Notes: generated by a model not told the origin, from the sequence alone. Positions 1 through 60,434 are shown, counted from the first letter of the stretch. The stretch: DNA of 64,000 bases from Candidatus Melainabacteria bacterium (GCA_023250155.1 JAHFBG010000003.1:102040-166039); one strand, 5' to 3'. Made by a program: numbers and translations.

Positions 1-1
1 A

Positions 2-139
2 TTGAAAGACAAGGTTATATTTGACGGTAGAAATCTATATGATCCTGAAAAACTAAAGCTTTTCGGACTAAGCCATGTTGGTATTGGGATTCCAGTTAGC
101 AAAGTCAAACAGAACTCAGAGCTTAGGGCCCAAAGCTGA
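2..139 (+). CDS. 3' fragment of a nucleotide-sugar dehydrogenase (UDP-glucose/GDP-mannose dehydrogenase family), partial at window edge
   Basis: Frame 2 reads ...KVIFDGRNLYDPEKLKLFGLSHVGIGIPV... to stop TGA 137-139; resembles the conserved C-terminus of UDP-glucose 6-dehydrogenases (IFDGRN.YDP motif). Confidence 0.5.
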   Translation: MKDKVIFDGRNLYDPEKLKLFGLSHVGIGIPVSKVKQNSELRAQS

Positions 140-167
140 AATCTTTATTTTGTTGTACAATATATTC

Positions 168-827
168 ATGAATCAAACAGCAAGACTTACATTTCAAGAT
201 GAACTTCTTAAGCTTCATGGCTTGGTTTTAAACTTGGCGAATGAAGTAAAAATGAATGGTGAACTATTACTTGAGTACTTACAAAAACATGAGGTACCAG
301 AGTTATTTACCAAGATAAAAAATAAAGATAAAGAAATAGACAAAGTCAGATGGCAAGTACATGATTTTGGTGATGAACTTATAGTACTCCAACAACCAGT
401 AGCAAAGGACTTCAGACAAATAATTACATCAATTCAAGTTACTGACAATTTAGAAAGAATAGGTGATCACTTTAAAAAAACTGCTAGATATCTAGAGAAA
501 TTTAGCTTATCTGAGATTGAGGTTCCACAAGAAATTATTAAAATGACTACTTTAGGTTTAAATATGCTCTCTCAATCTATTTCAGCATATTCACAAATCC
601 TTGAAGGCAAAACAAATGAAGTATCTAAACTTGATGATGAAATGGATGAGCTTTATAGACAAACCGTTAAAAAAATTATAAGTTTAATTAAAATTTCCTC
701 AGAAGACAAAATAGACAGTTTATCAAAATTGTTTTTTGTGGCCCAAAGCTTTGAAAGAGCAGCAGATCATGCTGCAAAAATTGGTGATCTTGTAAACTAT
801 TCAATTACTGGAAAAAGAAAAGAATAA
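168..827 (+). CDS. phoU: PhoU-family phosphate signalling regulator
   Basis: Two PhoU repeats with DNLERIGDH and FERAADHAAKIGD motifs; listed ORF 75..827 trimmed to ATG at 168 (MNQTARL...). Confidence 0.75.
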   Translation: MNQTARLTFQDELLKLHGLVLNLANEVKMNGELLLEYLQKHEVPELFTKIKNKDKEIDKVRWQVHDFGDELIVLQQPVAKDFRQIITSIQVTDNLERIGDHFKKTARYLEKFSLSEIEVPQEIIKMTTLGLNMLSQSISAYSQILEGKTNEVSKLDDEMDELYRQTVKKIISLIKISSEDKIDSLSKLFFVAQSFERAADHAAKIGDLVNYSITGKRKE

Positions 828-828
828 A

Positions 829-1275
829 CTATCTTGCTAAAGCCTTTTTAATAGGCTCTTTCAAAACTTTTTTAGTATCAAACTTATGAATTATTCTATG
901 TATTAAAAAGTAAGTTGAGAATTTTCTACCTGGATTACAAAATTGATCACATAAAAAATGTGCCAATACTGACAAAGTAATACCTACTCTCCAAGGAGTT
1001 AAGTCTGGATTTAATGTTAGAAGAAAAAATAAAAGCAACAACTCATATGAATGCAAAGGTACATATAGCTTTCCACTTATCTTTTCATGATGAGCACCAT
1101 TAACTTTTTTCCAATCCCATTTTTTTCCATGAGCATATATATAATCAATGATGTGATCTAGATCAATTAAGGTACCGACTAAAAAGCTAGTGATTGCAGG
1201 TGCTAACTCGCCAAAAGTAGCATATGTAAAAATAGCAACTGATGCTGATACTACAATATGTCCTGAAGTTCTCAT
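829..1275 (-). CDS. membrane-bound metal-dependent hydrolase-like protein (DUF457/YdjM-like)
   Basis: 148 aa, several TM segments, LIDLDH motif similar to DUF457 LPDIDH. Confidence 0.4.
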   Translation of the reverse strand: MRTSGHIVVSASVAIFTYATFGELAPAITSFLVGTLIDLDHIIDYIYAHGKKWDWKKVNGAHHEKISGKLYVPLHSYELLLLFFLLTLNPDLTPWRVGITLSVLAHFLCDQFCNPGRKFSTYFLIHRIIHKFDTKKVLKEPIKKALAR

Positions 1276-1392
1276 GATACTTATTATTTACCCCTTTTAA
1301 TTAAATTATCAACGTATTAGGTTAAAATTTGATTAAAGTTAAATAAGATTGTTAACTATATAGAAGTTTGACATGCTATCTTCTACTATAAG

Positions 1393-1860
1393 ATGAGGAT
1401 TGGACATGGTTACGACATACATAAGCTTGTACCTAACAAAAAATTAATAATTGGTGGGATTGAAATTCCATATTCTAAGGGGCTCCTTGGTCATAGCGAT
1501 GCTGATGTTCTTATCCATGCAATTATTGATGCCATGCTTGGCGCTTGTGGCCTTGGTGATATAGGATTACATTTCCCTTGCAATGATGAAAAGTGGAAGG
1601 ATTCAAGCAGTCTTGATTTACTACTCATCACTAATAGAACAATTACTGATAAAGGATTTCAAATAAATAATATTGACTCTACGATTGTACTTGAAGAACC
1701 AAAATTATTTCCATACATACATGAAATGAGAAAAAAAATCTCTGATGTTTTAAAAATAAATTATGATCAAATCAACATAAAAGCAAAAACCAATGAAGAA
1801 CAAGATTCAATAGGACAAAAAAATTCTATTTGTGCTTGGGCTGTTATCTTAATTAAATAA
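1393..1860 (+). CDS. ispF: 2-C-methyl-D-erythritol 2,4-cyclodiphosphate synthase
   Basis: MRIGHGYDIHKL...GHSDADVLIHAIIDAMLGA motifs typical of IspF; 155 aa. Confidence 0.9.
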   Translation: MRIGHGYDIHKLVPNKKLIIGGIEIPYSKGLLGHSDADVLIHAIIDAMLGACGLGDIGLHFPCNDEKWKDSSSLDLLLITNRTITDKGFQINNIDSTIVLEEPKLFPYIHEMRKKISDVLKINYDQINIKAKTNEEQDSIGQKNSICAWAVILIK

Positions 1861-2054
1861 TTTGATTATTATTTTGAATAGCTATATTTTATAAAAAAAA
1901 TTGTGATATCCCCAACAGTCAGAAAAGATTTTTGTAAGAAAATATATATTTTGTTTGTTAACCCTAAGGAAAAATTAATCGTCAGTAGAATATAAAGCTT
2001 AGACCAAAAAAAATTAGATTTAGTTTTAAAAAAGAGGAAAAACAGGAGAAAAAA

Positions 2055-2984
2055 ATGATCAAGATTAAATTGTTTACGACAACACTAATTGCAATATTTT
2101 GTTTGGGTTTAAATTTTTATAATCACCCAGCAAATGCAGAAAATACTTCCACACCACAAGGATTTTTAGATAGCTATACAATAACGCTAAGTGGTAGTGG
2201 ATTAAACTCTACAACTGCATTAAATATAAAAGTCGATGTTGCACCTTTAAACTCAGCTCAACTAGATACAGGTGTTTCCTTTAAAGGAACTGGAGCTACT
2301 CAGTTGCTCACAGATGTAAACCAAGGAACAGGTACTATCAGCGTAGTCTGGAGTGGTACAGTTACTGATGGAAAAGTTACCATTACAGGAATGTTGAAGC
2401 CTGGTACAGTCAGTTCTACTCCAGGAATAACTATTTCTAAAATAGAAAAAGCTGGTGGTGTCGATATTACAAAAGACTTAACATCTACTATCAATCTTAC
2501 ATCATCAAACCCTTTACCTGCAGCAAGTCCATCTCCATCTCCAAGCCCATCTCCATCCCCATCTCCAAGTCCATCTCCAAAACCAAGTCCATCACCAAGT
2601 CCTAGCCCAACCACACCTCCAAAACCAGGATCATCTCCTACAGATGAAGCAGATGATCCTTCTATAACAATATCTGGTAGTGAACAAATTACAATTCAAT
2701 CAGGCATATTAAATGCTGGAAAACTAAAAGTTAAAGCAGCTGATTTTACTGCATTGAGCAAATGCAGTGTTTCAGCATCTGACTCTGACTTAGTAAAAAT
2801 TAAACCAGCAAGGTTTATTCTTGGGCCAGGAAGAACCAAACAAACTCTTTTAGTTAGAGTACCTCTGTCAGCAGCTAGAGATATTATTGACAGTGGTGAT
2901 ACTGAAAGCGTTACCGTTGAAATCAGTTGTAAAAATGGTGCATTTGATGATACAGAAATACTGCTAGTACCTGAAGAAGATTAG
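2055..2984 (+). CDS. secreted hypothetical protein with (Ser-Pro)n linker
   Basis: N-terminal signal peptide, SPSPSPSP...KPSPSPSP low-complexity linker at 2520..2620, Ser/Thr-rich. Confidence 0.6.
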   Translation: MIKIKLFTTTLIAIFCLGLNFYNHPANAENTSTPQGFLDSYTITLSGSGLNSTTALNIKVDVAPLNSAQLDTGVSFKGTGATQLLTDVNQGTGTISVVWSGTVTDGKVTITGMLKPGTVSSTPGITISKIEKAGGVDITKDLTSTINLTSSNPLPAASPSPSPSPSPSPSPSPSPKPSPSPSPSPTTPPKPGSSPTDEADDPSITISGSEQITIQSGILNAGKLKVKAADFTALSKCSVSASDSDLVKIKPARFILGPGRTKQTLLVRVPLSAARDIIDSGDTESVTVEISCKNGAFDDTEILLVPEED

Positions 2985-2994
2985 TATTAGAAAT

Positions 2995-4740
2995 CTAATC
3001 GATCTTTTTAGCACCAAGCAAATCCTTAATGGCCTTAGTGAAATCATTATCACTAGGGTCATTGTTTTTTTGAGAGATGTTACTAGTAACTAAATTTAAG
3101 CTAGGAGGATCTTTTTGTTGAAGACTTGCTTGAGTAATATTACCTTCAACCTCATTTGGCTCCTTAGCTCTAGCCAAGATCCTAAATCGAATATTTGCAG
3201 GCTCAATCCCACTAACAGTTTTAGTGGCTTGTAAAATCATTTCTTTTTTCTTAGAATCTTTTTCAAGTCTTTGCAAGAAAGTATCTTTCGCTATTCCTAA
3301 CTCTAAGAGATCTTTAGAAAGACTTATGACATAGCTCTCAGACTGATTTAATAATGTTTTTGTTGGATTGCTTTCAATTAGACTTACTATCTGAGTCCAG
3401 AGGGAGTTTAGGTCAGGATTTGAAATTGACAATTGAGAATTGACAATGGGGGATTGCTGCCCAGCAGGGCGAGCCTCACTCACTTCGTGAGCGGGAGAAT
3501 TGAGAATTGAGAATTGAGAGTTAAGAGTTGATACTTTAGGATCTTTGGCTTGTGACTGACTACTGGTTATTGGTTGCTGATTGCTGATTGCTGACTGCTG
3601 ACCTTGTTCTAATCTTTCAATCTTTTCTTTCAACTCTGTAAGTGAAATCAAAAAGTCTCTATCTACAATACTCATAACCTCTACAATAAACTGCAACTCC
3701 TGACTAAGTGCAAAACGTAATTTAGACTGTGAATCCTTAAGCCTGTCAATAATCTTTACTATATGGGCTATGTCTATTGAATTTAAAGCATTTAGATCAT
3801 CAGATAATTCTTTTGATAAACTTTCCCTGAAGTTTGTATTGATTTTAGCTTTGCCAAGATCTATAAATAATTCAATAATTCCCTTCAAAGATTCTTCAAT
3901 ATCTTTTCCACTTTTTACTAAGTTTTCTGCCAAATCAACTGCTTCTTTAATATTAAAAGTTAAAATAGCATTAGCTAACTTAAACAGAACTCTCCTATCA
4001 ATAGTACCAAAAAGCTGAAACACTTCTTCTGAATTTATTGATTTATCATCTGACTGCAAAACGCTTATTTGATCAAGAAGAGATACAGCATCTCTTAAGC
4101 AACCATTGGCTCTTTTCGATATAAATTTTGTAATAGTATTATCAATGTTTATTTTTTCACAAGATGCAATTCCTTGAATTCGTGTTTCAATCTCTTCTTG
4201 TGAAACCGATTTAAAATCAAGTTTTTGACATCTGCTTATAATAGTAGGTATAACTTTGTATTCTTCAGTAGTAGCCAAAATAAATATTACATTTTTGGGT
4301 GGCTCTTCAAGTGTCTTTAATAAAGCATTAAAGGCATGATCCGTAAGCATGTGAACTTCATCAATTATATAAATTTTAAATCTTGATCCATAAGTACCCA
4401 AACTAACTCTGTTTATAAGATTTTCAGCATCTTCTACTTTTCTATGACTTGCAGCATCTATCTCTATAACATCAAGTGAATTACCTTTGGTTATTGATTC
4501 ACAGCTTATACACTTGTTACAAGGATCTATTGTTATACCACTTTGACAGTTCAATGATTTAGCTAAAATTCTTGCTGTAGATGTTTTTCCTGTTCCTCTT
4601 GGACCACAAAACAAATAAGCATGAACAATTTTGTCATAAGTAATGGCATTAGTTAGGGTTTTAGTAACTACTTCCTGACCTATTACTTCAAGTAGCTTTT
4701 GTGGCCTATATTTTAAATATAACGGTTGATATTGTTTCAC
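2995..4740 (-). CDS. dnaX: DNA polymerase III subunit gamma/tau
   Basis: YRPQKLLEVIGQE, Walker A GPRGTGKTS, Zn-finger CNKCISC, DEVHML; central linker contains in-frame heptamer repeats. Confidence 0.9.
   Translation of the reverse strand: MKQYQPLYLKYRPQKLLEVIGQEVVTKTLTNAITYDKIVHAYLFCGPRGTGKTSTARILAKSLNCQSGITIDPCNKCISCESITKGNSLDVIEIDAASHRKVEDAENLINRVSLGTYGSRFKIYIIDEVHMLTDHAFNALLKTLEEPPKNVIFILATTEEYKVIPTIISRCQKLDFKSVSQEEIETRIQGIASCEKINIDNTITKFISKRANGCLRDAVSLLDQISVLQSDDKSINSEEVFQLFGTIDRRVLFKLANAILTFNIKEAVDLAENLVKSGKDIEESLKGIIELFIDLGKAKINTNFRESLSKELSDDLNALNSIDIAHIVKIIDRLKDSQSKLRFALSQELQFIVEVMSIVDRDFLISLTELKEKIERLEQGQQSAISNQQPITSSQSQAKDPKVSTLNSQFSILNSPAHEVSEARPAGQQSPIVNSQLSISNPDLNSLWTQIVSLIESNPTKTLLNQSESYVISLSKDLLELGIAKDTFLQRLEKDSKKKEMILQATKTVSGIEPANIRFRILARAKEPNEVEGNITQASLQQKDPPSLNLVTSNISQKNNDPSDNDFTKAIKDLLGAKKID
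3421..3606. repeat. in-frame heptanucleotide tandem repeats within dnaX linker region
   Basis: (AATTGAC/AATTGAG)n at 3421..3448 and 3496..3531, (TTGCTGA)4 at about 3584..3604; encode LNSQFSILNS / VNSQLSISN / QQSAISNQQ. Confidence 0.8.
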
Positions 4741-5339
4741 GTAATTTCTACTCCATTAAATGTGTTCATTGCAAAGTCTACACTAGAAGTCATGAGTGTT
4801 TCAAGAGCTTGTATTGAAACTTCAACTACTCTTTGAACTAAATTAGACTCGTTTTTAGAGAACTTTTGTAAAACATAGTCTTTTCTTAGGTCTCCACCAG
4901 GATCTGGACCTACTCCAACTCTAACTCTCGTAAACTCCTGGTTTCCACCTAAACACTGAATGATTGATTCAATACCATGATGTCCTGCTGAACCATTGTT
5001 AAAACCAATTCTTATTTTTCCAAGATTCAATGCAACTTCATCATGAACTACTATTAAATCCTTCGATTCAAATTTAAACCAATTTGTTACTTTCTGTACC
5101 GCTTCTCCAGAATGGTTCATATATGTAGTAGGCCATACAAGAACTACATCATATGCCTTACTATCAGACAATGTAATTGTATCTTTTCCATACCAAGATA
5201 AAAGATCATTGTCTTGCTTACCAACAATCTTATACTTCTCACCAAAAGCATCTAAGATGCTAAATCCAATATTATGGCGTGTATTGTCATACTCAGTACC
5301 TGGATTTCCTAAACCAACAATTAATTTTTTGTTTGACAT
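4737..5339 (-). CDS. pth: peptidyl-tRNA hydrolase
   Basis: LIVGLGNPG.EY..TRHNIGF motif; 200 aa; 4-nt overlap with dnaX. Confidence 0.9.
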   Translation of the reverse strand: MSNKKLIVGLGNPGTEYDNTRHNIGFSILDAFGEKYKIVGKQDNDLLSWYGKDTITLSDSKAYDVVLVWPTTYMNHSGEAVQKVTNWFKFESKDLIVVHDEVALNLGKIRIGFNNGSAGHHGIESIIQCLGGNQEFTRVRVGVGPDPGGDLRKDYVLQKFSKNESNLVQRVVEVSIQALETLMTSSVDFAMNTFNGVEIT

Positions 5340-5344
5340 TATTC

Positions 5345-6505
5345 TTATAAAGATACAAGGGGGGAATTGATTCTTAATCTGGTTTCTTTATCTATTTCAA
5401 GGATTTCATCAAGCGAGGTTGGCTTAGAAGAATTGTGTGTCTCTATAGCAGAAGCTATTGTTTTATAAATATCGCTAAATGAGATTTTGTCTTTTAAAAA
5501 TAAATCCACAGCTATTTCATTTGCTGCATTTAAAACTATAGGATAACTATCTCCTTTAGAAGCTACTTCATAAGCTAGCTTTAAGCATGGAAACCTTACA
5601 TAATCAGGTGCTTCAAACTCAAGCTTTCCAACCGTCAATAAATCACAAAATAAATTAAATGGCAATTCTTTACGATGTGGGTAAAAGAGAGAGTACTGAA
5701 TAGGAAGCTTCATGTCTGTAGCGCCCAACTGTGCCATTATATTTCCATCTACGAACTCAACTGCACTATGCATAATGCTTTGAGGATGAATAAAGACATC
5801 TATTTGTTTTTCACTAAAACCAAACAAACTCATGGCTTCTATAATTTCTAATCCCTTATTCATGAGAGTAGCAGAGTCAACCGTAATTTTTTGTCCCATT
5901 ACCCAGGTAGGATGTTTTAAAGCTTGTTCTTTTGTAGCAGCTTGGATTTCTTTTAAACTCCAGGTTCTAAAAGGTCCACCTGATGCAGTTAGTATAATTC
6001 TTTTAACTTGTTCTTTTTTTGATTTTCCTAAACACTGATGAATAGCGACATGCTCACTGTCAAGTGGAATAACTTCACCTCTATGTTTTAGAATCAAATC
6101 TTGAATTAATCCACCTGCAATTACTAAAGTTTCTTTATTTGCAAAAGCTACTCTTTTCCCATGACTTAGTGCTTCTATAGTAGGTTTTAAGCCCAGTGAA
6201 CCTACAAGACTGTTTACAACAATATCACATTGGCATGATGAAATAAATTCTAAACCAACATCACCCCAATATATTTCTAAAACTGGATCTTTTAAAATTG
6301 ATTTTAACTCTTGTGCTAAAGCTACATCTTTTACAGAAACAAAACGAGGATTGTGTTCTTTTATTTGCTCTGCTAATAGTGGTGCATTTCCACCAGCTGC
6401 TAATCCTATAACCTCAAAGTCATTTTTAAATGCACTTAAAACATCTAAAGTTTGTTTTCCTATAGAACCTGTAGAGCCTAGTACTGATACACGTTTTTTT
6501 TTCAT
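5345..6505 (-). CDS. dxr: 1-deoxy-D-xylulose 5-phosphate reductoisomerase
   Basis: VLGSTGSIGKQTLDV N-terminal NADPH motif, 386 aa, MEP-pathway context with ispF. Confidence 0.9.
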   Translation of the reverse strand: MKKKRVSVLGSTGSIGKQTLDVLSAFKNDFEVIGLAAGGNAPLLAEQIKEHNPRFVSVKDVALAQELKSILKDPVLEIYWGDVGLEFISSCQCDIVVNSLVGSLGLKPTIEALSHGKRVAFANKETLVIAGGLIQDLILKHRGEVIPLDSEHVAIHQCLGKSKKEQVKRIILTASGGPFRTWSLKEIQAATKEQALKHPTWVMGQKITVDSATLMNKGLEIIEAMSLFGFSEKQIDVFIHPQSIMHSAVEFVDGNIMAQLGATDMKLPIQYSLFYPHRKELPFNLFCDLLTVGKLEFEAPDYVRFPCLKLAYEVASKGDSYPIVLNAANEIAVDLFLKDKISFSDIYKTIASAIETHNSSKPTSLDEILEIDKETRLRINSPLVSL

Positions 6506-6514
6506 GATGGGTAA

Positions 6515-9286
6515 CTATGCGGGGGTACTATTACATTCTCCTAATAGTTCAATTTGTTCATTAATTGTTTTTATCTGATTCTCTAATTCAATTATATTTT
6601 TCTTAACCTCATCAATTTTATCCTGAGCAGCATTATTAATAAAGCTTGTATTGCTAAGTTTTAAATTCTGAGCATTTAAGTCCTTTTCAAACTGAGCTTT
6701 TTTCTTATTAAAGTTCATAACCATCTTGTCAATATCAACTAAACCAGATAATGGAATAAGAATTCTTGTTTCATTGACTAAAGCACCACTAGATGGTTTA
6801 ACAGGTTCAAAATGGCTTAATACAGAAACTTTGGACTTAGTTAGGTATTCAATATATGAAACAAAACTAATCAATGTATTTTTTTCAAAGTTATTGTTTG
6901 TAAATAGTCTGATTTCCAGTTCCTTTGTCCACGGAATACTTAAAGTCTGTCTTAAATTTCTTATTTCACGAGTAATATCAATGATATAACTAAAGCTTTT
7001 ATCAGCTTCTTTGTTTATGAAAGCTAAGTCTGGTTTAGGATATGTTGCAAAGCAAATAAATTTAGAGCTGACAGCTGACAGCTGACAGCTGACAGCTAGA
7101 TTTATCTCCTCCGTAATAAAGGGCATTATGGGATGAAGGACACGTATAATGCCTTCTACTATATACAATAAAATAACTTGAGTTTGAAGTTTTAGTTTTG
7201 GATCATCTAATTGTTTCTTTGAGATTTCTATATACCAGTCACAAAAGCCATCCCAGACAAACTTATAAATTTGTTTTGATATTTCAGTGAAATTATATTT
7301 TTTATCAGCAAAATCATTTTGAATAAATAAAAGCAACTCATGGTAACTATTTAAAATCCACAAATCTGCAATGGTTAACTGTTCTTTTTTTATTTTTGTT
7401 AAATCAATGTCATATTTTTTTTCTGCTTCAAGGTTTTGAAGCACAAATCTTGTAGCATTCCAAAGCTTGTTTGCAAATCTTTTATACTGTTCAAGTGTAT
7501 CTGATTCCCACTTCCCATCCTTATCTTTTCTACCTGGGAAACGAACATCCTGATTTCCAGTCACTCCAACACTAAAATACCAAAAGCGATTTGCATCAGC
7601 ACCATACTTTTCTATCATTTCAAGAGGATCAATTGCATTTCCTTTAGACTTTGACATTCTTTTTCCATCAGGGGTTTGAATAACAGGATGAATTAAAACT
7701 TCTTGAAATGGAATATTCCCTGCAAATTCTAATCCCATAAATACCATTCTTGATACCCAAAGATTAATTATTTCTCTTGCAGTTGCTAAGATGCTAGTAG
7801 GATAAAAAGCTTTTAAATGCTCGGTTTGATTAGGCCATCCTAAAGTTACAAAAGGCCATAATGCAGAGCTAAACCAAGTATCTAAGACATCAGGATCTTG
7901 AATTAAATTTTTGCTTGCACATTCTTTACAAGAATCAGGAACAGTCTCATTAACAGTTACATGACTGTGTTCTTTACAGTACCAGACAGGTATTTGATGT
8001 CCCCACCAAAGCTGCCTACTAATACACCAATCTTTTATATTTCTTAGCCAATTCAAATAATGATCAGTATATCGATGAGGTGTAAATTTTATCCTTTCTT
8101 CTTCAACTACCTTCATAGCAGGCTCTGCTAATGGTTTCATTCTCACATACCATTGCTCTGAAAGATATGGTTCTATTATAGTTCCACAGCGATCATGTTT
8201 TGACTGAGGCTGGTCATATTCCACTACTTGTTTTAACAGACCCAGTTCTTCTAGTTTTTGTACTGTAATTTCTCTTGCTTTAAAACGTTCTTGTCCTTTT
8301 ATATCTTCTGGAATACCAATGTTTTCTTTATCCTGGATTTTTCCATCCTGAGTTATGATTTCAGGATAAGGATAAAAATGAGTCCCATATTTTTTAATGG
8401 TGTCTTTGTTTCTATCAAATATTTCATAGTCTACAGAATCATGTGCTGGAGTGACTTTTAAAGCACCAGTTCCAAAATCCATTTCTATAATCTCATCAGA
8501 AATAATGGGTATTTGTTTATTTATAAATGGTAGAAATACTTTTTGTCCAACAAGTTTTTTATATCTACCGTCATTCGGATTCACACAGACAGCTATATCA
8601 CCAAACAAAGTCTCTGGACGTGTTGTAGCAACAGTAATTCCACCTTTTGCAATATCATTAAAGTCAAATGGATACAAAATATGATAAATCTTACCTTTTG
8701 CATGATCAGTTTCTACTTCAAGATCACTAAGACTGGTGAGGCATTTAGGACACCAGTTAACTATTCTTTTTCCACGATAGATTAAGCCTTTATTATAAAG
8801 TGACACAAAGACTTTTGTAATAGCCTGTGAATAATTTTCATCCATAGTAAAAACAAGTCTGTCATAGTCTAAATGACACCCAAGTTTTTTCATCTGATTT
8901 ATAATTTCATTTCCATGTTTTTCTTTCCATATCCAGATCCGCTTTAAAAACTCTTCTCTACCTATGTCATGCTTTCTTTTCTTTTCAACTTTTGAAAGTT
9001 CTTTTTCAACTACCACCTGTGTACCAATACCAGCATGATCTGTACCACCCTGCCATAAAACATTTTTTCCATTCATTTGGTGATATCGAATTAGGACATC
9101 CTGAATAGTATCTCCAAATGCATGTCCCATATGAAGGCTGCCAGTTACATTTGGTGGTGGAAGAGCAATGGAAAAGCTTTCTTTATTTGGATCTATTTTT
9201 GATTTATAAATCTTTTCACTAAGCCAGGTATTTAGCCATTTTTCTTCTACTTCTTTTGGATTATATGTTTTAGAAAGTTCTTGCAT
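6515..9286 (-). CDS. valS: valine--tRNA ligase
   Basis: HMGH and KMSKSKGN class I motifs, 923 aa; contains (AGCTGAC)4 insertion at 7066..7099. Confidence 0.95.
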   Translation of the reverse strand: MQELSKTYNPKEVEEKWLNTWLSEKIYKSKIDPNKESFSIALPPPNVTGSLHMGHAFGDTIQDVLIRYHQMNGKNVLWQGGTDHAGIGTQVVVEKELSKVEKKRKHDIGREEFLKRIWIWKEKHGNEIINQMKKLGCHLDYDRLVFTMDENYSQAITKVFVSLYNKGLIYRGKRIVNWCPKCLTSLSDLEVETDHAKGKIYHILYPFDFNDIAKGGITVATTRPETLFGDIAVCVNPNDGRYKKLVGQKVFLPFINKQIPIISDEIIEMDFGTGALKVTPAHDSVDYEIFDRNKDTIKKYGTHFYPYPEIITQDGKIQDKENIGIPEDIKGQERFKAREITVQKLEELGLLKQVVEYDQPQSKHDRCGTIIEPYLSEQWYVRMKPLAEPAMKVVEEERIKFTPHRYTDHYLNWLRNIKDWCISRQLWWGHQIPVWYCKEHSHVTVNETVPDSCKECASKNLIQDPDVLDTWFSSALWPFVTLGWPNQTEHLKAFYPTSILATAREIINLWVSRMVFMGLEFAGNIPFQEVLIHPVIQTPDGKRMSKSKGNAIDPLEMIEKYGADANRFWYFSVGVTGNQDVRFPGRKDKDGKWESDTLEQYKRFANKLWNATRFVLQNLEAEKKYDIDLTKIKKEQLTIADLWILNSYHELLLFIQNDFADKKYNFTEISKQIYKFVWDGFCDWYIEISKKQLDDPKLKLQTQVILLYIVEGIIRVLHPIMPFITEEINLAVSCQLSAVSSKFICFATYPKPDLAFINKEADKSFSYIIDITREIRNLRQTLSIPWTKELEIRLFTNNNFEKNTLISFVSYIEYLTKSKVSVLSHFEPVKPSSGALVNETRILIPLSGLVDIDKMVMNFNKKKAQFEKDLNAQNLKLSNTSFINNAAQDKIDEVKKNIIELENQIKTINEQIELLGECNSTPA
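7066..7099. repeat. (AGCTGAC)4 tandem heptamer within valS
   Basis: agctgac x4 plus partial; encodes LAVSCQLSAVSS in ValRS. Confidence 0.85.
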
Positions 9287-9287
9287 T

Positions 9288-9500
9288 TTAAGCAGCTAGT
9301 TTTGCACCATACTCAATTGCAGCATTTATATCAATTTCTTTTAGTTGAGGATATTCTTTTAGTATTTGCTTTTTGGATTGGCCACCTGCTAACATTTGTA
9401 AAACCAAATAAACAGGTATTCTTGTTCCTTTTATACAAGCTTTTCCATGGAATACATTTGGATCTGACTCAACTCTATTTTTATTTAGCTTTTTCTTCAT
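9288..9500 (-). CDS. DUF433 domain protein (orphan antitoxin-like)
   Basis: 70 aa, GKACIKGTRIPVYLVLQMLAGGQS...ILKEYPQL matches DUF433 core; no DUF5615 partner adjacent. Confidence 0.65.
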   Translation of the reverse strand: MKKKLNKNRVESDPNVFHGKACIKGTRIPVYLVLQMLAGGQSKKQILKEYPQLKEIDINAAIEYGAKLAA

Positions 9501-9760
9501 TTCTTTATAATAAATATATCATATACTTACACCCACTCCTTACAATACTTTTATAGTTTTTACTCCGGTGGCTCTTGCGGTGACGTTGCTCCTCAGAGCC
9601 ACATTTGCATAGACCGCTCGGTTTGGGACAAACCTCGCTTCATTAACCAACATAGGCTTAGTGGCATTACGTTATGGGGTCCGTGAGTAATTACCTTTCA
9701 TGCTTATTTTAAGTTATTGTTCTACACTTAAGCTAAGTATAGCAATTAGAGGTTTAACAT

Positions 9761-10297
9761 ATGAGCACAATAGCTATGGTAAGTATAGGACTAGATCCTA
9801 CCAATAAAAAACTAGTTAAAGCTTCTTTTTCTAGAGTTGAAAATCTTAACAAGCCTTATAAAGAAATCACAGGAAAACCAATAGAGTTTCTTAGAAAATT
9901 TATTAGTGAATTAAAAATATCAGACATACCAATAAGAATTTATGATCCTAAACCTAATCTTCCTCAAAATCTTGCTTCCATCATACATAGAACCCTTATG
10001 AACTATTGGAGGGCTACACTACCACCGACAAGAGAGTTTATAGAAATAGGCAGAGATTTTGATGGTAAAAAATTCTATGCCTCATATCAAGATTCAAAAG
10101 ACTCTATTCCAAATGAATGGACTGCTTGTGTACAGACTGGGGATGCTCTGACATTGACAAAGGATATTTTAGAAACACTACACAACGGTCATGACAACCC
10201 TGTTGATATTGAATTTAAAAAAGGTGTTCCACAAGAAGTAAAAGATTTAATTACCAAAGCAATAGATCTTTATAATATGTCAGTTGAAAAAAAATAA
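9761..10297 (+). CDS. hypothetical protein
   Basis: 178-aa ORF with coding-like composition; no recognisable motif. Confidence 0.45.
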   Translation: MSTIAMVSIGLDPTNKKLVKASFSRVENLNKPYKEITGKPIEFLRKFISELKISDIPIRIYDPKPNLPQNLASIIHRTLMNYWRATLPPTREFIEIGRDFDGKKFYASYQDSKDSIPNEWTACVQTGDALTLTKDILETLHNGHDNPVDIEFKKGVPQEVKDLITKAIDLYNMSVEKK

Positions 10298-10318
10298 AGA
10301 ATTAATCTTGCTGTTTCT

Positions 10319-12121
10319 TTATGCTGTCAACCGTGATTTTAACTTTTCTATAAAAGTTTCGGCTAAATCAGAGTCACCGACAGCTTCAACGATTTGTTCA
10401 TCTAACTTTTCAGAGACTCCATCACTTCCTAAAGCATTATTCAATGCCGTTTTTAAAGCAACCAAACCTGGATCATTATTTTCTATTGCGCCACTCTTTA
10501 GTTTTTCTACTAGAGCTTCTAACAAGTCTCCACCTGTATTATTGTCGCTTAAATAGCTATCAATATCTTCACCTAATTTTTCAGATGTACTATCATTATC
10601 TAAAGCAGTGTTAAAAGCTGCTTTCAAAGTAACTAAGCCTGGATCATTGTCTTCTATTTTACCGCTCTTTAGTTTTTCTACTAAAGTATCTAATAAGTCT
10701 CCACCTACACTATTGTCACTTAAATATTTATCTACATCCTTACCTAACTCTTCAGAGACAGTATCACTTTCCAGAGCATTGTTAAATGCAGTGCCTAGAG
10801 CAAGTAAGCTAGGATCATCATCTTTTATTTCACTGTTAGCAAATCTTTCTCCCAGAGCACTTAATCGATCTCCTGTAATATCATTTTCACCCAAATAGGT
10901 ACTTATATCTCCACCCAATTTTTCAGCTGTTTCATCACTACCTAGAGCATTGTTAAAAGCAGTGCCTAATGCAAGTAAGCTAGGGTCATCATCTTTTATT
11001 TCACGATTCTTAAACTTTTCCAATAAAGGACTTAGGAAGTCTTCTGCTATCGTATTATTATCAAAATAGTTTTCTAGATCTTTACCTAATTGTTCAGAGA
11101 ACTCAGTGCTTTGTAGAGCAATATTAAATGCATTTCTTAAAGCAAGCAAACTTGAAGCATCATCAGATAAGCTGGTTTTTAATTTTTCCATTAAAGCATC
11201 TATTAACTTGCTTCCTGTATCATACTCAGATACTGCATTGCTAGCCGTATTGGTTAGTGCATCAGTAAATGCTTTACTCTTAAGAGCATCAGTTGTTGTT
11301 TGTCTTAAAGCATTAACACCTTCATCAGTTACAAGATCTTTTTTGGTGAGAGAATTAACTATATTTTTTCCTATCTTCTCACCATCTCCAGAATTTTCTA
11401 ATGCATTAACTACAGTAGTTTCTAAATACTCAGTCAACTTCTTACCTCTTAAAGTTTGAACTGTAGCATCTTTTGTAGCAGCATCTATAGCAGCACCATC
11501 TTTCAATTGTTCTACAAATGGTTGTGACATTGCTGTTCTTAGTTTTTGTAATTCTTCAAGAAAAGGTTGAGCAGCTTGTTTATGAGCATTAACATGTGTT
11601 GAAATAGAATCCAATAAGTCTAAAATTGACTGGACTTGATTAGCATTTTCATTGGCTTCAAATCTAACACCTTCTTTTCTAACAAATTCTTTTAATGTCC
11701 ACTCAATACCAGGTAGATCATTTTCTTCTAACTGTTGAAGTCTTTTTACGGTAGATGAAAGTTCTTTATTTGTTTGTCTTAGGGTTAAACTTTTTCCAAT
11801 TACTTTTTTAACGGCTACTCCTAATATTCCACCAACACCAAAATCAATAGCATGATTAACAGTAATAGAAGGAAGTCCAGCTTCATCAGTATATTCTTTT
11901 GGTACAACCCTAAGATTTTCTTCTTGTCTCTTTTGTGATTTTTCAAGGGCTTTTGTATTTGTTTTATTAGTGTTTTCTTGGGGGGGAGGTGAGTTCTCTT
12001 GATTGTAATCTGTCACTAATTCTTGTGCTTTTTCTTTACCAGCTATAACTAAACTTCCACCTACTCCAAATGCTGCTAAATTAACTAGTCCATTAACTAT
12101 AAATGATCTTCTTGTTTGCAT
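10319..12121 (-). CDS. membrane-anchored repeat protein (about 56-aa tandem repeats)
   Basis: N-terminal TM helix; unit DDDPSLLALGTAFNNALGSD..EKLG.DI..YL..N...GD.L repeated about 5 times in the C-terminal half. Confidence 0.6.
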   Translation of the reverse strand: MQTRRSFIVNGLVNLAAFGVGGSLVIAGKEKAQELVTDYNQENSPPPQENTNKTNTKALEKSQKRQEENLRVVPKEYTDEAGLPSITVNHAIDFGVGGILGVAVKKVIGKSLTLRQTNKELSSTVKRLQQLEENDLPGIEWTLKEFVRKEGVRFEANENANQVQSILDLLDSISTHVNAHKQAAQPFLEELQKLRTAMSQPFVEQLKDGAAIDAATKDATVQTLRGKKLTEYLETTVVNALENSGDGEKIGKNIVNSLTKKDLVTDEGVNALRQTTTDALKSKAFTDALTNTASNAVSEYDTGSKLIDALMEKLKTSLSDDASSLLALRNAFNIALQSTEFSEQLGKDLENYFDNNTIAEDFLSPLLEKFKNREIKDDDPSLLALGTAFNNALGSDETAEKLGGDISTYLGENDITGDRLSALGERFANSEIKDDDPSLLALGTAFNNALESDTVSEELGKDVDKYLSDNSVGGDLLDTLVEKLKSGKIEDNDPGLVTLKAAFNTALDNDSTSEKLGEDIDSYLSDNNTGGDLLEALVEKLKSGAIENNDPGLVALKTALNNALGSDGVSEKLDEQIVEAVGDSDLAETFIEKLKSRLTA

Positions 12122-15371: not shown

Positions 15372-15995
15372 TTAATTTTTTTCTATATCTATTGTTTGCG
15401 CATTGACGACTTTCTTTTTTCTAAATCGTAAATTTTCAAGATTTATAACTCCACCCACACCAGACTTAATTTTTCCAAAGAGTTCTTCGCTTATCTCACT
15501 TGTGCCACGTATGGTATTTAGTGCAGTTGATTTTGCAATATTTCCAATTTTTGCACCTGTATCATAAGCGCACTGACTCAAATCTACAATTGTTCTTCCA
15601 AAAGTATTTGCAGCCTTTGTACTTACTTCATGTGTTCCTTCTATTGTTCCAAGTGTACTTGATTTTAAATTTTTCCCAATCTCATTTACAAAACCAAAAC
15701 CCACTTTAGTACTTTCAATTGAAATCTCTTTTGTTTCACCAATAGTTTTTTTTATAGAGTCTGTAACAGCACTACCAAACTCATTTGAAACTTCTTTTGT
15801 AGAGCGAATTGCAAAAACTGCAGAGTCTTTAAATGTTCCAAGAACTGATCTAAAAATTGTGCTTGAACCATCTAAAACACTGATGATTGCTCCTTGAAGT
15901 GTTTCACCTATTTGTACTGCAAAACCAGGTTCATTATTTGTGTTTTTAGTATCTTTGTTAGTTTCATTTGCTTCCATGTTTTTCTCCTTGATCAA
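15372..15995 (-). CDS. hypothetical protein with repetitive G-T/S-x motifs
   Basis: 207 aa, periodic LGT/IGE/FGR segments, no recognised domain. Confidence 0.5.
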   Translation of the reverse strand: MIKEKNMEANETNKDTKNTNNEPGFAVQIGETLQGAIISVLDGSSTIFRSVLGTFKDSAVFAIRSTKEVSNEFGSAVTDSIKKTIGETKEISIESTKVGFGFVNEIGKNLKSSTLGTIEGTHEVSTKAANTFGRTIVDLSQCAYDTGAKIGNIAKSTALNTIRGTSEISEELFGKIKSGVGGVINLENLRFRKKKVVNAQTIDIEKN

Positions 15996-16180
15996 AATCC
16001 TTCTTAATTAGTCTATGTTCTTTTTATCGTCTCTTTTAGAGAATTTTATGGTATGTAAAGATTAAATAAATCTAAAATTTAAATTTAATCGTTATCTTAA
16101 CCTGATTTTCTTAATCTCAATGCCTTAAAATCGAAATACATAACACGAAAATAATTAAGATCATATTTAAGAAAAATTAT

Positions 16181-50349: not shown

Positions 50350-51066
50350 ATGAATATAAAAAAAGTAGATTTATCTACAGCAGACATAGGAGAGTTGATA
50401 AGAATTGGGAATCAAAATAAACGTAATGTGATTACCGAGAGTTTAAATTTTCTCAGGAGACATCCAAACATCATTACCGGGGTTGGTCTAGGAATAGCAG
50501 CACCATTAGGATTTCTTGGACTAGCGACGGGGCTTGCTGAAGCAAGCCTTGATCTGCCCCCTGTGCGTTCAATGTCTATGTTGCTTCTTAGTCTTGGAAT
50601 AATAGGTGGAACTGACTATATAGATCGTAAATTAGAATCAAATGTTAATTTCTTAGGAGAAGATATTAGAACAACGGATATGACTAAACCTATTAGTGCA
50701 GATGAAGTATTTGAGAAATTAGAAAAAAATAAAAGTTTGCTTGAAAAGATAAAACAATATTATGCATATTATGACAATGAAAATCTATCAAAGAAACTAG
50801 AACAAGAGGAATCACTTGCTAGTGCTGCTCATGACTTGGTACAAAAGCCTAAAGTAAAAGCAGCATTAACTGAAGTCGTTTCTATGACTGGGAGGCTTAA
50901 CGATACACAATCAGATGACAAAACTCAGATTAGAGAATTATGTTTTGAATTAGATAAAAAACTAGACAAGCTATGTGGAGCTTTAGAATTAAATCCAGAT
51001 ATTGAAATTGAAGATGAGCCATATGTTGATCAATGGCAGAAGTCATCTACGGAAATAAAAAAATAA
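50350..51066 (+). CDS. hypothetical membrane protein
   Basis: 238 aa, TM segment GVGLGIAAPLGFLGLATGLA. Confidence 0.45.
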   Translation: MNIKKVDLSTADIGELIRIGNQNKRNVITESLNFLRRHPNIITGVGLGIAAPLGFLGLATGLAEASLDLPPVRSMSMLLLSLGIIGGTDYIDRKLESNVNFLGEDIRTTDMTKPISADEVFEKLEKNKSLLEKIKQYYAYYDNENLSKKLEQEESLASAAHDLVQKPKVKAALTEVVSMTGRLNDTQSDDKTQIRELCFELDKKLDKLCGALELNPDIEIEDEPYVDQWQKSSTEIKK

Positions 51067-51067
51067 T

Positions 51068-51292
51068 TTACTTAGTTATAATTTGTGCATCTAGATTTTT
51101 TAAATAAATAACATAGGGATTATCTAAATCAAATGTTTTCTTAGAGGCTGACAGCACCTCAATACCTTTTACAGTGCCATCAGAAAAATAATCGATAAAT
51201 GTATCTTTGTCTACCTCTTCAGTTTTTACAACCTTACCAGGTTTAAATTCTATATATAAGGTATCGGCTTCTTTATCGTATTCTATTTGCAT
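51068..51292 (-). CDS. DUF2283-family protein (antitoxin-like)
   Basis: MQIEYDKEADTLYIEFKPG...GIEVL typical DUF2283. Confidence 0.7.
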   Translation of the reverse strand: MQIEYDKEADTLYIEFKPGKVVKTEEVDKDTFIDYFSDGTVKGIEVLSASKKTFDLDNPYVIYLKNLDAQIITK

Positions 51293-51297
51293 AATTG

Positions 51298-51552
51298 TTA
51301 CCTGAAATACCTTGTAATCGCTGTAATCACAATTATTTTATCATCTTCTCTAACAAATAAAACTTTAACTTCTTTCTCCCTATAGAATATTCCTTCCCAA
51401 CACCTATTGTATTCAAACACTTTAACAACACTTAGTTTGTTATACCTTTCAACTACTGGCTTTGAACTTTCCAAAGCATCTTTAATTTCACTTAGATCTA
51501 TACCTCTATCATTGGCTCTCTTTAGTACATGTTTAGTAAATTCGAACTGCAT
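51298..51552 (-). CDS. DUF4258-family protein (toxin-like)
   Basis: FTKHVLKRANDRGIDLSEIKDAL....VLFVREDDKIIVITAI typical DUF4258; listed ORF trimmed to Met50. Confidence 0.6.
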   Translation of the reverse strand: MQFEFTKHVLKRANDRGIDLSEIKDALESSKPVVERYNKLSVVKVFEYNRCWEGIFYREKEVKVLFVREDDKIIVITAITRYFR

Positions 51553-51632
51553 AGTTATCGGTATTCTAGTACATGAATTAGAAAAAAACTGTAACCAGGA
51601 GTTACACGAATAATTAAAAAAATAAGAGAGAT

Positions 51633-51782
51633 TGTGTTGATGTGTTGGTGTACTGATGTACTGATGTATTGATGTTATTACGTACTTATATCCACACACA
51701 ATAACAGGATTGAGCTATCAGGATTGAGGAGTGAGCAGAATAAATTCTACTCTCAATTCCCAATCCTCATTCCTCATTCCTC
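51633..51782. repeat. intergenic block of octamer (TNNTGATG)5 and inverted heptamer (AGGATTG / CCTCATT) repeats
   Basis: tgttgatg tgttggtg tactgatg tactgatg tattgatg; then caggattgag...ggattgagga facing ctcaattcccaatcctcattcctcattcctc. Confidence 0.75.
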
Positions 51783-51890
51783 TATATCTTTCCTTAATCA
51801 AGTCCCACACATTGCAGTAAAAAAAATAGTCAGTTATTATTATCGTCAGTTTGTAAAACCAGTGTAAGAGTCAAAGAAAAAAGAGGGAAT

Positions 51891-52514
51891 ATGAAACTAT
51901 CAAATATAGTAGGAGCTACATTAATAGGAGCTACATTAACAACAGCTGGGTGTAATCGTAGTGAAGAGCTTAGAGAAAAAGAACACATAGAACAAGTAAG
52001 AAAAGAGTCAGAAGAACGGCAAGAAGAATGGAAAAAGATTGCAGAGATTCAAGCACACATTAAAAGTGCACTTGTTCAAGGGAAAAAAGAATCTTATTCA
52101 TTAGAGCATTTTAGAGATAAAATTTCTGGAATACATTTATTTGATGGAAATAAAAATAGTATTCTTGAGCTTGAAGAAATAGATCTGTTTATAAAAGTAG
52201 TCATCAATAAAAATAGTGAAACATACACAAAAGAAGGCTTGAAAAAACTACAAGAAATAAGAATGTCGATAGAGAAAGATGGTAATCGTGAATACCAATT
52301 TCGTCCTTTGAACTTTGGCTCTGATGTACGCTGGAGTGGTGCTGAGTTGGATTACAGAACAAGAATAGAGGTAGAAAGACATCAATATACACCTGATAAC
52401 ATAACTCAAACACTTAAAAACATGTCAATTAAATGTAGAGAGTATGAAGAAAAGCTTCGCGAGCAAATAGAATCAGAGATTCAAAAACAAATAAATCAAG
52501 CTTTGAAAAAATAA
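51891..52514 (+). CDS. EF-hand-loop lipoprotein, paralog 1
   Basis: lipobox LTTAGC; FDGNKNSILELEEIDLFIK EF-like loop; C-terminus identical to paralog 3. Confidence 0.6.
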   Translation: MKLSNIVGATLIGATLTTAGCNRSEELREKEHIEQVRKESEERQEEWKKIAEIQAHIKSALVQGKKESYSLEHFRDKISGIHLFDGNKNSILELEEIDLFIKVVINKNSETYTKEGLKKLQEIRMSIEKDGNREYQFRPLNFGSDVRWSGAELDYRTRIEVERHQYTPDNITQTLKNMSIKCREYEEKLREQIESEIQKQINQALKK

Positions 52515-52523
52515 GGGGAATAT

Positions 52524-53015
52524 ATGAACATACTTAAAACAGGAGTACTAGCAACAGCGCTTTCTATGCCATTGATAGGTGCTGGGTGCAATCAAGCTAC
52601 TAATAAAGAGCAAGAAGAGATTGTCGCAGCTAAGCATGAAGGGTTAGCAGAAACCCCATTACCATTAAAAGAACTTAGAAATGTTTCTGATGGTATCCTC
52701 CATTTATTTGATACAAATAAAAATGAAATACTTGATCCTGAGGAAATAGATTTATTTATAAAAGTAGTAATTAATAAAGGCACTGGAAAATATACAGAAG
52801 AAGGACAAAAAAAGTTATGGGACGTAAGATTTCAAATCTATAAACAGGGACGGGGATATGGTAATGGTGGTCCATATCAACCAAATAATATAAAAACTAG
52901 CATTGATAATCTATGGGACAAGGCTGAAGAATATAATACAAAACGACGAGAGCAAATTAATGAAGAAGTAAAACAAGGAATTGAAAAAGAATTAAAAAAT
53001 ACTAAAACAAAATAG
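52524..53015 (+). CDS. EF-hand-loop lipoprotein, paralog 2
   Basis: lipobox LIGAGC; FDTNKNEILDPEEIDLFIK. Confidence 0.6.
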   Translation: MNILKTGVLATALSMPLIGAGCNQATNKEQEEIVAAKHEGLAETPLPLKELRNVSDGILHLFDTNKNEILDPEEIDLFIKVVINKGTGKYTEEGQKKLWDVRFQIYKQGRGYGNGGPYQPNNIKTSIDNLWDKAEEYNTKRREQINEEVKQGIEKELKNTKTK

Positions 53016-53030
53016 CTATAGGAGAAAATC

Positions 53031-53642
53031 ATGAACCTGTCAAAAATAGTAGGAGCTACATTAACAACAGCTGGGTGTTATAGAGGTGAGGAGCTTAAGG
53101 AAAAACAACGCGAAGAACAGAGGTTACAGGAGTTACGAAAACAGGAAGAAAAGGAACAGAAAGAGATTTCAAAGATTCAAGCACACATTGAAAGTGCACT
53201 TGCTCAAAGGAAAAAAGACCCTTATTCATTAAAAAATCTTAGAGATAAAATCCCTGGAATACATTTATTTGATGGAAATAAAAATAATATCCTTGATCTT
53301 GAAGAAATAGATCTATTTATAAAAGCAATAGTCAATAAAAACAGTGAAAAATACACTAAAGAAGGATTAGAAAAACTGCTCGAAGTAAAAGGGCTGATAT
53401 CAAAACAGAGTAGTCGTGAATATCAATTTCGCCGCTTGAATTTTTACTCTGATGAATCTTGGACTGATGGTAATTTGAGTCCCAGAACAAGAATAGAGAC
53501 AGAGCGACATCGTTACACACCTGATAACATAACTCAAACACTTAACAACATGTCAATTAAATGTAGAGAGTATGAAGAAAAGCTTCGCGAGCAAACAGAA
53601 TCAGAGATTCAAAAACAAATAAATCAAGCATTAAAAAAATAA
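53031..53642 (+). CDS. EF-hand-loop lipoprotein, paralog 3
   Basis: lipobox LTTAGC; FDGNKNNILDLEEIDLFIK. Confidence 0.6.
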   Translation: MNLSKIVGATLTTAGCYRGEELKEKQREEQRLQELRKQEEKEQKEISKIQAHIESALAQRKKDPYSLKNLRDKIPGIHLFDGNKNNILDLEEIDLFIKAIVNKNSEKYTKEGLEKLLEVKGLISKQSSREYQFRRLNFYSDESWTDGNLSPRTRIETERHRYTPDNITQTLNNMSIKCREYEEKLREQTESEIQKQINQALKK

Positions 53643-53654
53643 GGAAAAAAAATC

Positions 53655-54182
53655 ATGAACATACTACAAAAAATCTTTTTAGCAGCAGCTTTTACTGCAC
53701 CACTAACGAGCATTGGCTGCAAGAAGAGTGATGATAGAGCTGATTGGCCTACTTCAGAACAATGGCAAAAAGTACGTGAAGATGACAGAAAAAGACGAGC
53801 AGATAGAAGTAGCGAGCTAGCAAAGTCTGTTTATCCACTAGAAAAACTTAGACATGTAGCGCATGGTATACATCTGTTTGATGAAAACAGAAATGAAGTG
53901 CTAGAACCCAATGAAATAGATAGGTTTATAAAGATTCAAATAAATAATGAGACTGATAAATTTACAGAAGAAGGAAAGAAAAAATTCTCAAATATTATAG
54001 ATTCTTTATATAAAGAATCTTGGCTGCCTAATGATGAACTTATTACTGTCAAATATCGTCCTAATAACATAACCAAAACTCTTGAAAACTTTGATGCCAA
54101 GCTTAAGGACTATGATAAAAAATATCTTGATCAAATAGATGCAGAAATTCAAAGCAAAATCAATCGATTAAAAGATCGATAA
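53655..54182 (+). CDS. EF-hand-loop lipoprotein, paralog 4
   Basis: lipobox LTSIGC; FDENRNEVLEPNEIDRFIK. Confidence 0.6.
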   Translation: MNILQKIFLAAAFTAPLTSIGCKKSDDRADWPTSEQWQKVREDDRKRRADRSSELAKSVYPLEKLRHVAHGIHLFDENRNEVLEPNEIDRFIKIQINNETDKFTEEGKKKFSNIIDSLYKESWLPNDELITVKYRPNNITKTLENFDAKLKDYDKKYLDQIDAEIQSKINRLKDR

Positions 54183-54261
54183 ATTTGTAACCAGCGATTA
54201 CAGTTTAATAACAAATACTGTTTTTCATATCTTGACCATGACATAGTATTCTTTTATACTT

Positions 54262-54483: not shown

Positions 54484-54603
54484 GAATAAATATGGATTTA
54501 AAAATAATAGTTATGACATTTATGTTTATTTGTATGTTGGGTTTTGCATGGGTTTTAAAATTTGTTCTGGCAAAAGAAGTTCAATCACCTAAAAAGAAAA
54601 AAA

Positions 54604-55059: not shown

Positions 55060-55061
55060 AC

Positions 55062-55751: not shown

Positions 55752-55793
55752 AAATTTAAAAACCTCATTACAAACTCTAACATATTAAGGACT

Positions 55794-57338: not shown

Positions 57339-57341
57339 ATT

Positions 57342-57908: not shown

Positions 57909-57918
57909 GCTTCCTGCT

Positions 57919-60432: not shown

Positions 60433-60434
60433 AA

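Follow-up and report, generated by a model that had tools for sequence, protein, structure and literature searches.

The short tandemly repeated repetitive (STRR) sequences of heterocystous cyanobacteria are heptanucleotide repeats, of which STRR1-3 have the units CCCCAGT, TTGGTCA, and CAACAGT. The first report of such repeats, as cited in PMC4692102, concerned three heptanucleotides of Calothrix PCC 7601. A second group, the TAACTGA direct repeats, occurs in marine Beggiatoaceae, cyanobacteria, and Bacteroidetes with a patchy phylogenetic distribution (MacGregor 2015, PMC4679880). The forward strand of these repeats is closed, the reverse strand is open and encodes LSVISYQ, and most copies are intergenic, often beside start codons; 11 open reading frames (ORFs), including MurG and an RpoC-like ORF, contain reverse repeats (PMC4679880). 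This study deals with heptamer and octamer arrays in a stretch of 64,000 nucleotides (nt) from a Candidatus Melainabacteria bacterium (GCA_023250155.1, JAHFBG010000003.1:102040-166039), hereafter the window, where some of them run in frame through dnaX, valS, and purQ. The window has a GC content of ~32% and belongs to a metagenome-assembled genome (MAG) of the Vampirovibrionia lineage from groundwater. The arrays are probably slippage-type simple-sequence repeats with 7-nt and some 8-nt units, which arose recently in one Melainabacteria lineage and were filtered by selection. They fall within a class of repeats already known from bacteria and cyanobacteria and represent no new phenomenon.

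The likeness to STRRs proposed in the initial annotation is borne out, as heptanucleotide units stand in short tandem arrays at several dispersed loci (about nine in 64 kb) in a cyanobacteria-allied lineage. However, the units of the window (AATTGAG, TTGCTGA, AGCTGAC, and CATGAGG) are not those of STRR1-3, and the host is a non-photosynthetic, 32% GC Melainabacteria MAG instead of a heterocystous cyanobacterium. The arrays share with the TAACTGA repeats a TGA-containing heptamer, the logic of one closed and one open strand, and a minority of ORF-internal copies that lie solely in the open (reverse) orientation. The units AATTGAG, TTGCTGA, and AGCTGAC differ from TAACTGA, of which no array appears in the Tandem Repeats Finder (TRF) list of the window. 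In BOGUAY, ORF-internal TAACTGA repeats are found mostly at protein ends, whereas those of the window are internal to conserved essential enzymes. The GGGGA(C/T)T and GGGAATC heptamers of Nostoc PCC 7120 and Xanthomonas are dispersed, have a mode of about four units, and show under-representation within coding DNA (Rehm 2015, PMC4692102). In Nostoc PCC 7120, 32% of the GGGGA(C/T)T arrays lie within genes; the figure for Xanthomonas is 7-11% (PMC4692102). The window arrays are likewise dispersed and depleted in coding DNA yet partly intragenic, but their units are AT-rich without G-tracts, whereas the Nostoc and Xanthomonas units are G-rich and quadruplex-forming. As summarized in PMC4679880, Mrazek et al. 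2007 found heptanucleotides to be the commonest class of long simple-sequence repeats (5-11 nt), with patchy richness among genomes, proposed polymerase slippage as their source, and observed that units of a multiple of three dominate inside genes. As far as that summary goes, the window differs in carrying non-triplet units inside genes. It extends STRR-like heptamers to the non-photosynthetic sister group of cyanobacteria and provides clean cases of non-triplet repeats fixed in essential enzymes, which reveal the simple rules behind this: use of the open strand, a net length that is a multiple of three, and a position in a loop or linker.

Arrays were identified with TRF (scores of 42-64), and host genes were identified with Pfam (Table 1). 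The window contains six exact runs of period 7 that are 17 nt or longer, compared with 0.18 expected from 100 first-order Markov simulations of it (simulation maximum, 2), so that tandem arrays with units in the 5-11 nt range are longer than chance allows. The four loci reported in the initial annotation (dnaX, valS, purQ, and an ORF start) all carry arrays. That list was incomplete, since further heptamer arrays lie at 51706-51736, 51749-51782, and 55788-55815 and octamer arrays at 51633-51675 and 55893-55975. It had also described the same heptanucleotide at all four loci; dnaX and purQ indeed have a common unit, but valS and the ORF start have other units. Coding DNA makes up 88% of the window and carries only 5 of the 11 arrays, a depletion with a binomial P of 8e-4 (3/9 and P = 2e-4 when counted as loci), and array density is ~8-fold higher in non-coding than in coding DNA. 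In relation to start codons, one array overlaps an ORF start, and some further arrays are located 37-80 nt upstream or follow stop codons, although these loci are few. Shared flanks, terminal inverted repeats, and target-site duplications, which mark miniature inverted-repeat transposable elements, repetitive extragenic palindromes, and Rickettsia palindromic elements, were not found among the window arrays, and Rfam recognized no RNA family at any array.

Table 1. Repeat arrays of the window and their host genes (positions counted from the first nucleotide of the window; aa, amino acids)
Feature	Position	Strand	Details
dnaX (clamp-loader tau/gamma subunit)	2995-4740	-	Pfam DNA_pol3_delta2 (1.4e-46), DNA_pol3_gamma3, DNAX_ATPase_lid; syntenic with dnaX of relatives
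dnaX array a, AATTGAC/AATTGAG-type x4.1	3420-3447	-	encodes IVNSQLSISN, DnaX aa 432-441; repeat family D19
47-nt GC-rich core (~66% GC) separating arrays a and b	3448-3494	-	encodes PAHEVSEARPAGQQSP
dnaX array b, GAGAATT x5.3 (coding strand CTCAATT)	3495-3531	-	12 residues, DnaX aa 404-415; family D6, common to purQ
dnaX array c, TTGCTGA x4 (coding strand TCAGCAA)	3574-3601	-	encodes GQQSAISNQQ, DnaX aa 380-389; TRF 95% matches
valS (valyl-tRNA synthetase, ValRS)	6515-9286	-	Pfam tRNA-synt_1 (3.9e-135), Anticodon_1; HIGH and KMSKS motifs in translation
valS array, perfect AGCTGAC x4.6 (coding strand GTCAGCT)	7066-7097	-	encodes LAVSCQLSAVS, ValRS aa ~730-741
Octamer array TGTAYTGA x5.4	51633-51675		upstream of DUF4258 gene (public-assembly call, window 51298-51552)
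RRTTGAG-type inverted pair	51706-51736 forward; 51749-51782 reverse complement (TRF 51756-51782)		divergent intergenic region
GGTTGAG/GATTGAG array	55788-55815 (TRF 55784-55814)		intergenic; 37-64 nt upstream of exbB start (55751)
Octamer array TTCTCTGA x ~8	55893-55975 (TRF 55893-55955)		intergenic; begins right after tonB stop
CTCCTGC/GCCTCAT block x7 (gene sense CATGAGG/CAGGAGG)	57869-57917	-	spans 5' end of ORF 57342-57908
purQ (glutaminase subunit of formylglycinamide ribonucleotide amidotransferase, FGAM synthase)	60435-61148	-	Pfam GATase_5 (1.6e-36); match to PDB 3d54 PurQ (4.7e-53)
purQ array, AGAATTG x4.3 (coding strand CTCAATT/CTCAACT)	60549-60578	-	10 residues, PurQ aa 191-200

The arrays are genuine and lineage-specific. 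Contigs L026-L029 are 99.99-100% identical to window 50435-64000 without gaps, and contig L155 matches window 1-11275 and contig L156 window 1-7477, each at 99.99-100% identity and likewise gap-free over the arrays spanned. These contigs were assembled independently from four to five samples, jointly span every array, and agree base for base over the arrays, which settles the concern raised with the initial annotation that the units might be assembly products. The comparison of strains suggested there was run on the same independent assemblies and revealed no copy-number variants, the copy number being the same at each array; 90% identity clusters of DnaX, ValRS, and PurQ likewise held exact sequences only, without length variants. 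The segments are absent from the PurQ, ValRS, and DnaX orthologs, and the reading frames of dnaX, valS, and purQ remain intact through the arrays in codon views and translations, as the initial annotation had it. That the arrays are assembly artefacts or ancestral conserved sequence is therefore extremely improbable, and both readings were rejected on the independent contigs and ortholog alignments. The one point in favor of an artefact is another independent contig, L157, whose end falls within dnaX array a, at window 3443; the repeat may have broken the assembly there, or the sample may be locally heterogeneous.

The nearest relatives by ValRS in a reference-genome scan are groundwater MAGs with identities of 82, 74, 71, 70, and 63%, followed by Obscuribacterales at 48-49%. 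The valS-dnaX gene order with two genes in between is kept in the relatives, and their valS-dnaX loci contain no period-7 array. By the same criterion that gave six arrays in the window, none were found in five related Melainabacteria loci (~105 kb) or in twenty other loci (~300 kb). Repeat richness is thus a trait of this genome and, at the loci compared, not of its close relatives, as described for long simple-sequence repeats.

TGA is part of each of the eight heptamer and octamer unit types and always lies on the purine-rich strand. The TGA closes all three frames of that strand, and the other strand is open in all three. The genes dnaX, valS, and purQ all have the open strand as their sense strand. 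The CTCAATT array encodes LNSQFSI, and the other units encode SAISNQQ and VSCQLSA. Because 7 and 3 are coprime, every phase is read within 21 nt, and a given unit in a given orientation can encode only a single heptapeptide, apart from rotation. The peptide LNSQFS(I/T)LNS, reported in the initial annotation as common to DnaX and PurQ, is present in both, but it is no independent coincidence, since it follows from the reading of 7-nt units by triplet codons. Gain or loss of one or two units shifts the frame, and therefore only three-unit steps are viable in essential genes, which fits the fixed copy numbers.

DnaX has a 65-residue linker at aa 379-443, of which the three arrays and the GC-rich core account for ~47 residues. 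The heptamer blocks of the initial annotation are confirmed as three arrays, and the array segments are absent from orthologs. However, no clean addition has taken place as that annotation implied; a hypervariable linker of similar length has been replaced, since the linker of relatives is 43-62 residues long and shows no conservation in the ortholog alignment. The GC-rich core forms a GC island in the 32% GC window, with short hairpins and a fold z of -4.05, and it may have inserted into a single array and divided it in two. No second copy of the core was found in any DNA compared, and it was dropped as a repeat family because it is present as a single copy only. The DnaX linker of the relative L017 holds, in frame, a GC-rich element at 15995-16075 (CGTCATTGCGAGGAGC...GACGAAGCAATC) that encodes RHCEEPKPRAEGVAVSDEAIS, so this linker accepts other small repeats as well.

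In ValRS, the array was placed at 7066-7099 with four units in the initial annotation; it is present, with a slightly shorter extent and more copies (Table 1). The site reads TEEINLAVSCQLSAVSSKF in the window and TEEIWQTLLGQ----QSNF in the closest relative, L001. The array adds a net four residues and overwrites about eight, and it removes a conserved Trp, the aromatic residue after PFITEE(I/L), which is kept in 7/7 relatives and in PDB 4xkz and 1gax. The segment past this aromatic position is variable in length among homologs, PDB homologs included. The valS site of L001 reads GGTCAGCAGTC, which matches 1.4 units of GTCAGCT except at one position and may represent a proto-repeat or a decayed array.

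In PurQ, the loop after NIAGI is INEKG in many relatives and in a Caldicellulosiruptor outgroup, and the loop of Thermotoga maritima 3d54 is equally long. The window loop has 15 residues against these five. An insertion absent from orthologs had thus been recognized correctly in the initial annotation, where its size was given as about 9 and not 10 residues. In an AlphaFold2 model (mean predicted local distance difference test score, pLDDT, 83.6), the insert is a coil flanked by strands 182-186 and 202-205, and the pLDDT falls below 50 at model residues 190-198. The purQ start in public assemblies is an ATG at 61145, and P0001 is the identical 236-aa protein. In an exact protein look-up, the 237-aa GTG-start PurQ and ORF 75-827 had no match, and the ATG-start PurQ and ORF 829-1275 were matched.

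The same loop carries heptamer arrays of other units (CTCCTAA, CGCACTT, TTTCCAA, and CCGTCCT) in related lineages (loci L150, L152, L153, and L154). In the proteins P0004 and P0015, the loop inserts repeat every 8 residues, a period suggestive of octamer units. In a rough tree of the PurQ orthologs P0002-P0098, insert-bearing and baseline proteins are intermixed, which implies at least six gains or losses. Judging from these sequences, the PurQ loop is a recurrent landing site for lineage-specific heptamer arrays of different units. A second PurQ site, after VYLKV, holds a perfect 28-nt palindrome, GTAGGGGCGAATGGCCATTCGCCCCTAC, in frame in the relative L153 (purQ 6458-7183), where it encodes GANGHSPLQ; other orthologs have like peptides at this site (GAYGRTPLQ, AGLKPA, and EAGFKPAS). 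In the window, an intergenic palindrome of similar GTAGGG...CCCTAC style lies at ~29411-29442. Palindromic elements of Rickettsia were reportedly described in 2000 by Ogata et al. as inserted in frame in protein genes. These elements of ~100-150 bp are selfish and are tolerated at surface-exposed sites of housekeeping proteins. The window arrays resemble them in being tolerated in frame but are tandem 7-mers and not palindromes, and the 28-nt palindrome of L153 is the closer analogue.

Together with these data, the following course can be proposed for the arrays as slippage-type repeats. Arrays of a 7-nt unit would be generated or expanded by slipped-strand copying, seeded either by a proto-repeat at the site or by a copy of an array from elsewhere. 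Most arrays settle in intergenic DNA. Within genes, the data show that selection keeps only those arrays that satisfy three conditions. First, the stop-free strand is the sense strand. Second, the length change is a multiple of three. Third, the site is a loop or linker that is already variable in length among orthologs. The sites in question are permissive because the DnaX linker is unconserved, the PurQ insert is a low-confidence coil, and the ValRS site is length-variable in PDB homologs. The peptides LNSQFSI, SAISNQQ, and VSCQLSA are by-products and not modules, and arrays in essential genes are effectively frozen, with only changes of three units in either direction being viable. The kind of element and the selective filter can be stated with fair confidence, and for the origin of the arrays, slippage-type amplification with some copying between sites is favored.

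Several observations weigh against slippage as the whole account. Slippage is not directly demonstrated, since no copy-number polymorphism was seen, and the genome-wide proliferation implied in the initial annotation was gauged on only ~80 kb of this genome, namely the 64-kb window and 16 kb outside it in which no more arrays were found. TGA on either strand is expected in 25% of random heptamers of this composition, and a neutral model does not predict that every unit contains it. Arrays of the RRTTGAG family occupy six unrelated places within 64 kb, with both strands represented. In a metagenome scan, (AATTGAG)3 was present in at least 120 contigs of 30-71% GC, often with several arrays per contig. 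In IMG/VR, (AATTGAG)3 occurred in 61 stretches, whereas the same-composition controls AGATTGA and GGAATAT occurred in 12 and 7, so that AATTGAG is 5-9 times commoner than these two heptamers. The six RRTTGAG sites, the metagenome contigs, and the IMG/VR excess suggest copying, dispersal, or unit selection beyond local slippage.

These last three observations also speak for another explanation, in which the arrays are copies of a dispersing, non-autonomous heptamer micro-element spread by recombination or template switching, possibly horizontally, and not products of local slippage. Besides the identical (AATTGAG)n in contigs of such different GC content, up to eight dispersed copies occur in one 33-kb viral contig of 58% GC, where repeated de novo origin of an AT-rich unit is unlikely. 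Different heptamer units occupy the PurQ loop in several lineages, and horizontal spread has been argued for TAACTGA (MacGregor, PMC4679880). On the other hand, the arrays lack the common flanks, terminal inverted repeats, and target-site duplications of mobile elements, their units differ among valS, dnaX array c, and purQ, a near-match proto-repeat exists at the L001 valS site, and no candidate enzyme came to light. That the PurQ site is recurrent is explained equally well by its being the only permissive loop of a small conserved enzyme. Dispersal by such an element is accordingly considered unlikely, although it is the foremost alternative to slippage followed by selection.

The AATTGAG family was also found in genes outside this lineage. 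Among the metagenome contigs listed, 745 kb contained 154 arrays of this family and ~100 of other heptamers, and 35 of 142 (AATTGAG)n arrays lay inside long open frames, always with CTCAATT as the sense strand. Pfam identified seven enzymes with a CTCAATT array on contigs unrelated to the window: a P-type ATPase, an arginyl-tRNA synthetase (ArgRS), a type IA topoisomerase, RlmN, a UDP-GlcNAc 2-epimerase (WecB), and glycoside hydrolases GH141 and GH97. The initial annotation had called in-frame spread through essential enzymes unusual, which is overstated, since intragenic heptamers are documented (PMC4679880, PMC4692102) and CTCAATT is in frame in these unrelated enzymes. In the IMG/VR contigs L183, L158, L168, and L197 (~58% GC), (CTCAATT)3-5 occurs up to eight times per 33-kb contig in one orientation, and several of these arrays directly adjoin an ATG without an intervening Shine-Dalgarno sequence. 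Their position suggests that CTCAATT arrays play a leader role in those genomes. A megablast of the multi-array viral contig L183 against deposited phages gave no match, and a literature search returned no report of AATTGAG/CTCAATT arrays or of such heptamer repeats in Melainabacteria. The recurrent PurQ loop, together with CTCAATT in unrelated enzymes and before start codons, hints that some heptamer families are spread or favored beyond slippage alone. It is nevertheless quite doubtful that CTCAATT/AATTGAG arrays are actively copied, cross-lineage micro-repeats of 5' leaders and permissive loops at 30-71% GC, phages included, with TGA under selection (for example, as an antisense three-frame stop). 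Wider interest lies in the recurrent PurQ loop, the lost ValRS aromatic, and the CTCAATT arrays in enzymes and 5' leaders.

A function of the arrays themselves can also be hypothesized, with intergenic arrays as regulatory elements, leaders, or phase switches, intragenic arrays as selected flexible linkers, and slippage in dnaX as a source of a gamma-like short product. The adjacency of CTCAATT arrays to ATG in GC-rich viral contigs, as for TAACTGA (PMC4679880), is in line with this proposal, and so is the block at 57869-57917, which provides AGGAGG and ATG for its ORF. That ORF 57342-57908 begins within a (GCCTCAT)-type block had been noted before and is confirmed, with both candidate ATGs inside the block and AGGAGG 8 nt upstream of the second. 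The orthologs in L150 and L154 begin ~23 residues further in, and the block is therefore a lineage-specific 5' end. A further point is that tandem repeats of Borgs have been argued to make disordered regions under selection (PMC9879509). As far as they are described there, Borg repeats resemble the window arrays in being recent, independently arising, ORF-internal tandem repeats that add low-complexity segments. In dnaX, a computed change of one unit up or down in any array would give a product of 388-444 aa, ending within or just past the linker that follows the clamp-loader core. Other bacteria make a short DnaX form by programmed frameshifting. That one-unit slippage in dnaX yields such a product without the C-terminal region is a further and less likely extension of the active-copying proposal above. 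Set against a functional role are the lack of length variants in any assembly or 90% identity cluster, where no varying copy number of the kind that marks phase-variable contingency loci was found, and the nature of the hosts, which are essential housekeeping enzymes and not surface or contingency genes. Moreover, the ValRS array deletes a conserved aromatic residue, which looks like a cost rather than a benefit, and the insert peptides amount to no more than a translation of the unit. A functional role is thus very unlikely.

Other features of the window were observed in passing. GC-rich islands in coding regions (23056, 25231, 26194, 41300, and 50521) were set aside because inspection, without ortholog comparison, gave no sign of insertion. 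Four tandem paralogous ORFs of 163-207 aa lie at 51891-54182 (+), with DNA segments 67-82% identical; the first, the only one checked, had no Pfam match. In-frame tandem repeats with triplet-multiple units are present in ORF 10319-12121 (-) at 10392-11075, in ORF 19704-21029 (+) at 20244-20567, and at 2499-2660; they comprise four 171-nt repeats and long 6/18/66-nt CACCAA-type arrays common to two ORFs. A cyclic di-GMP-I riboswitch at 58811-58988 (+) matches the full-length model of Rfam RF01051 with 58.8 bits and lies directly 5' of ORF 58993-60432, which encodes a Peptidase_S8 subtilisin-like protease.

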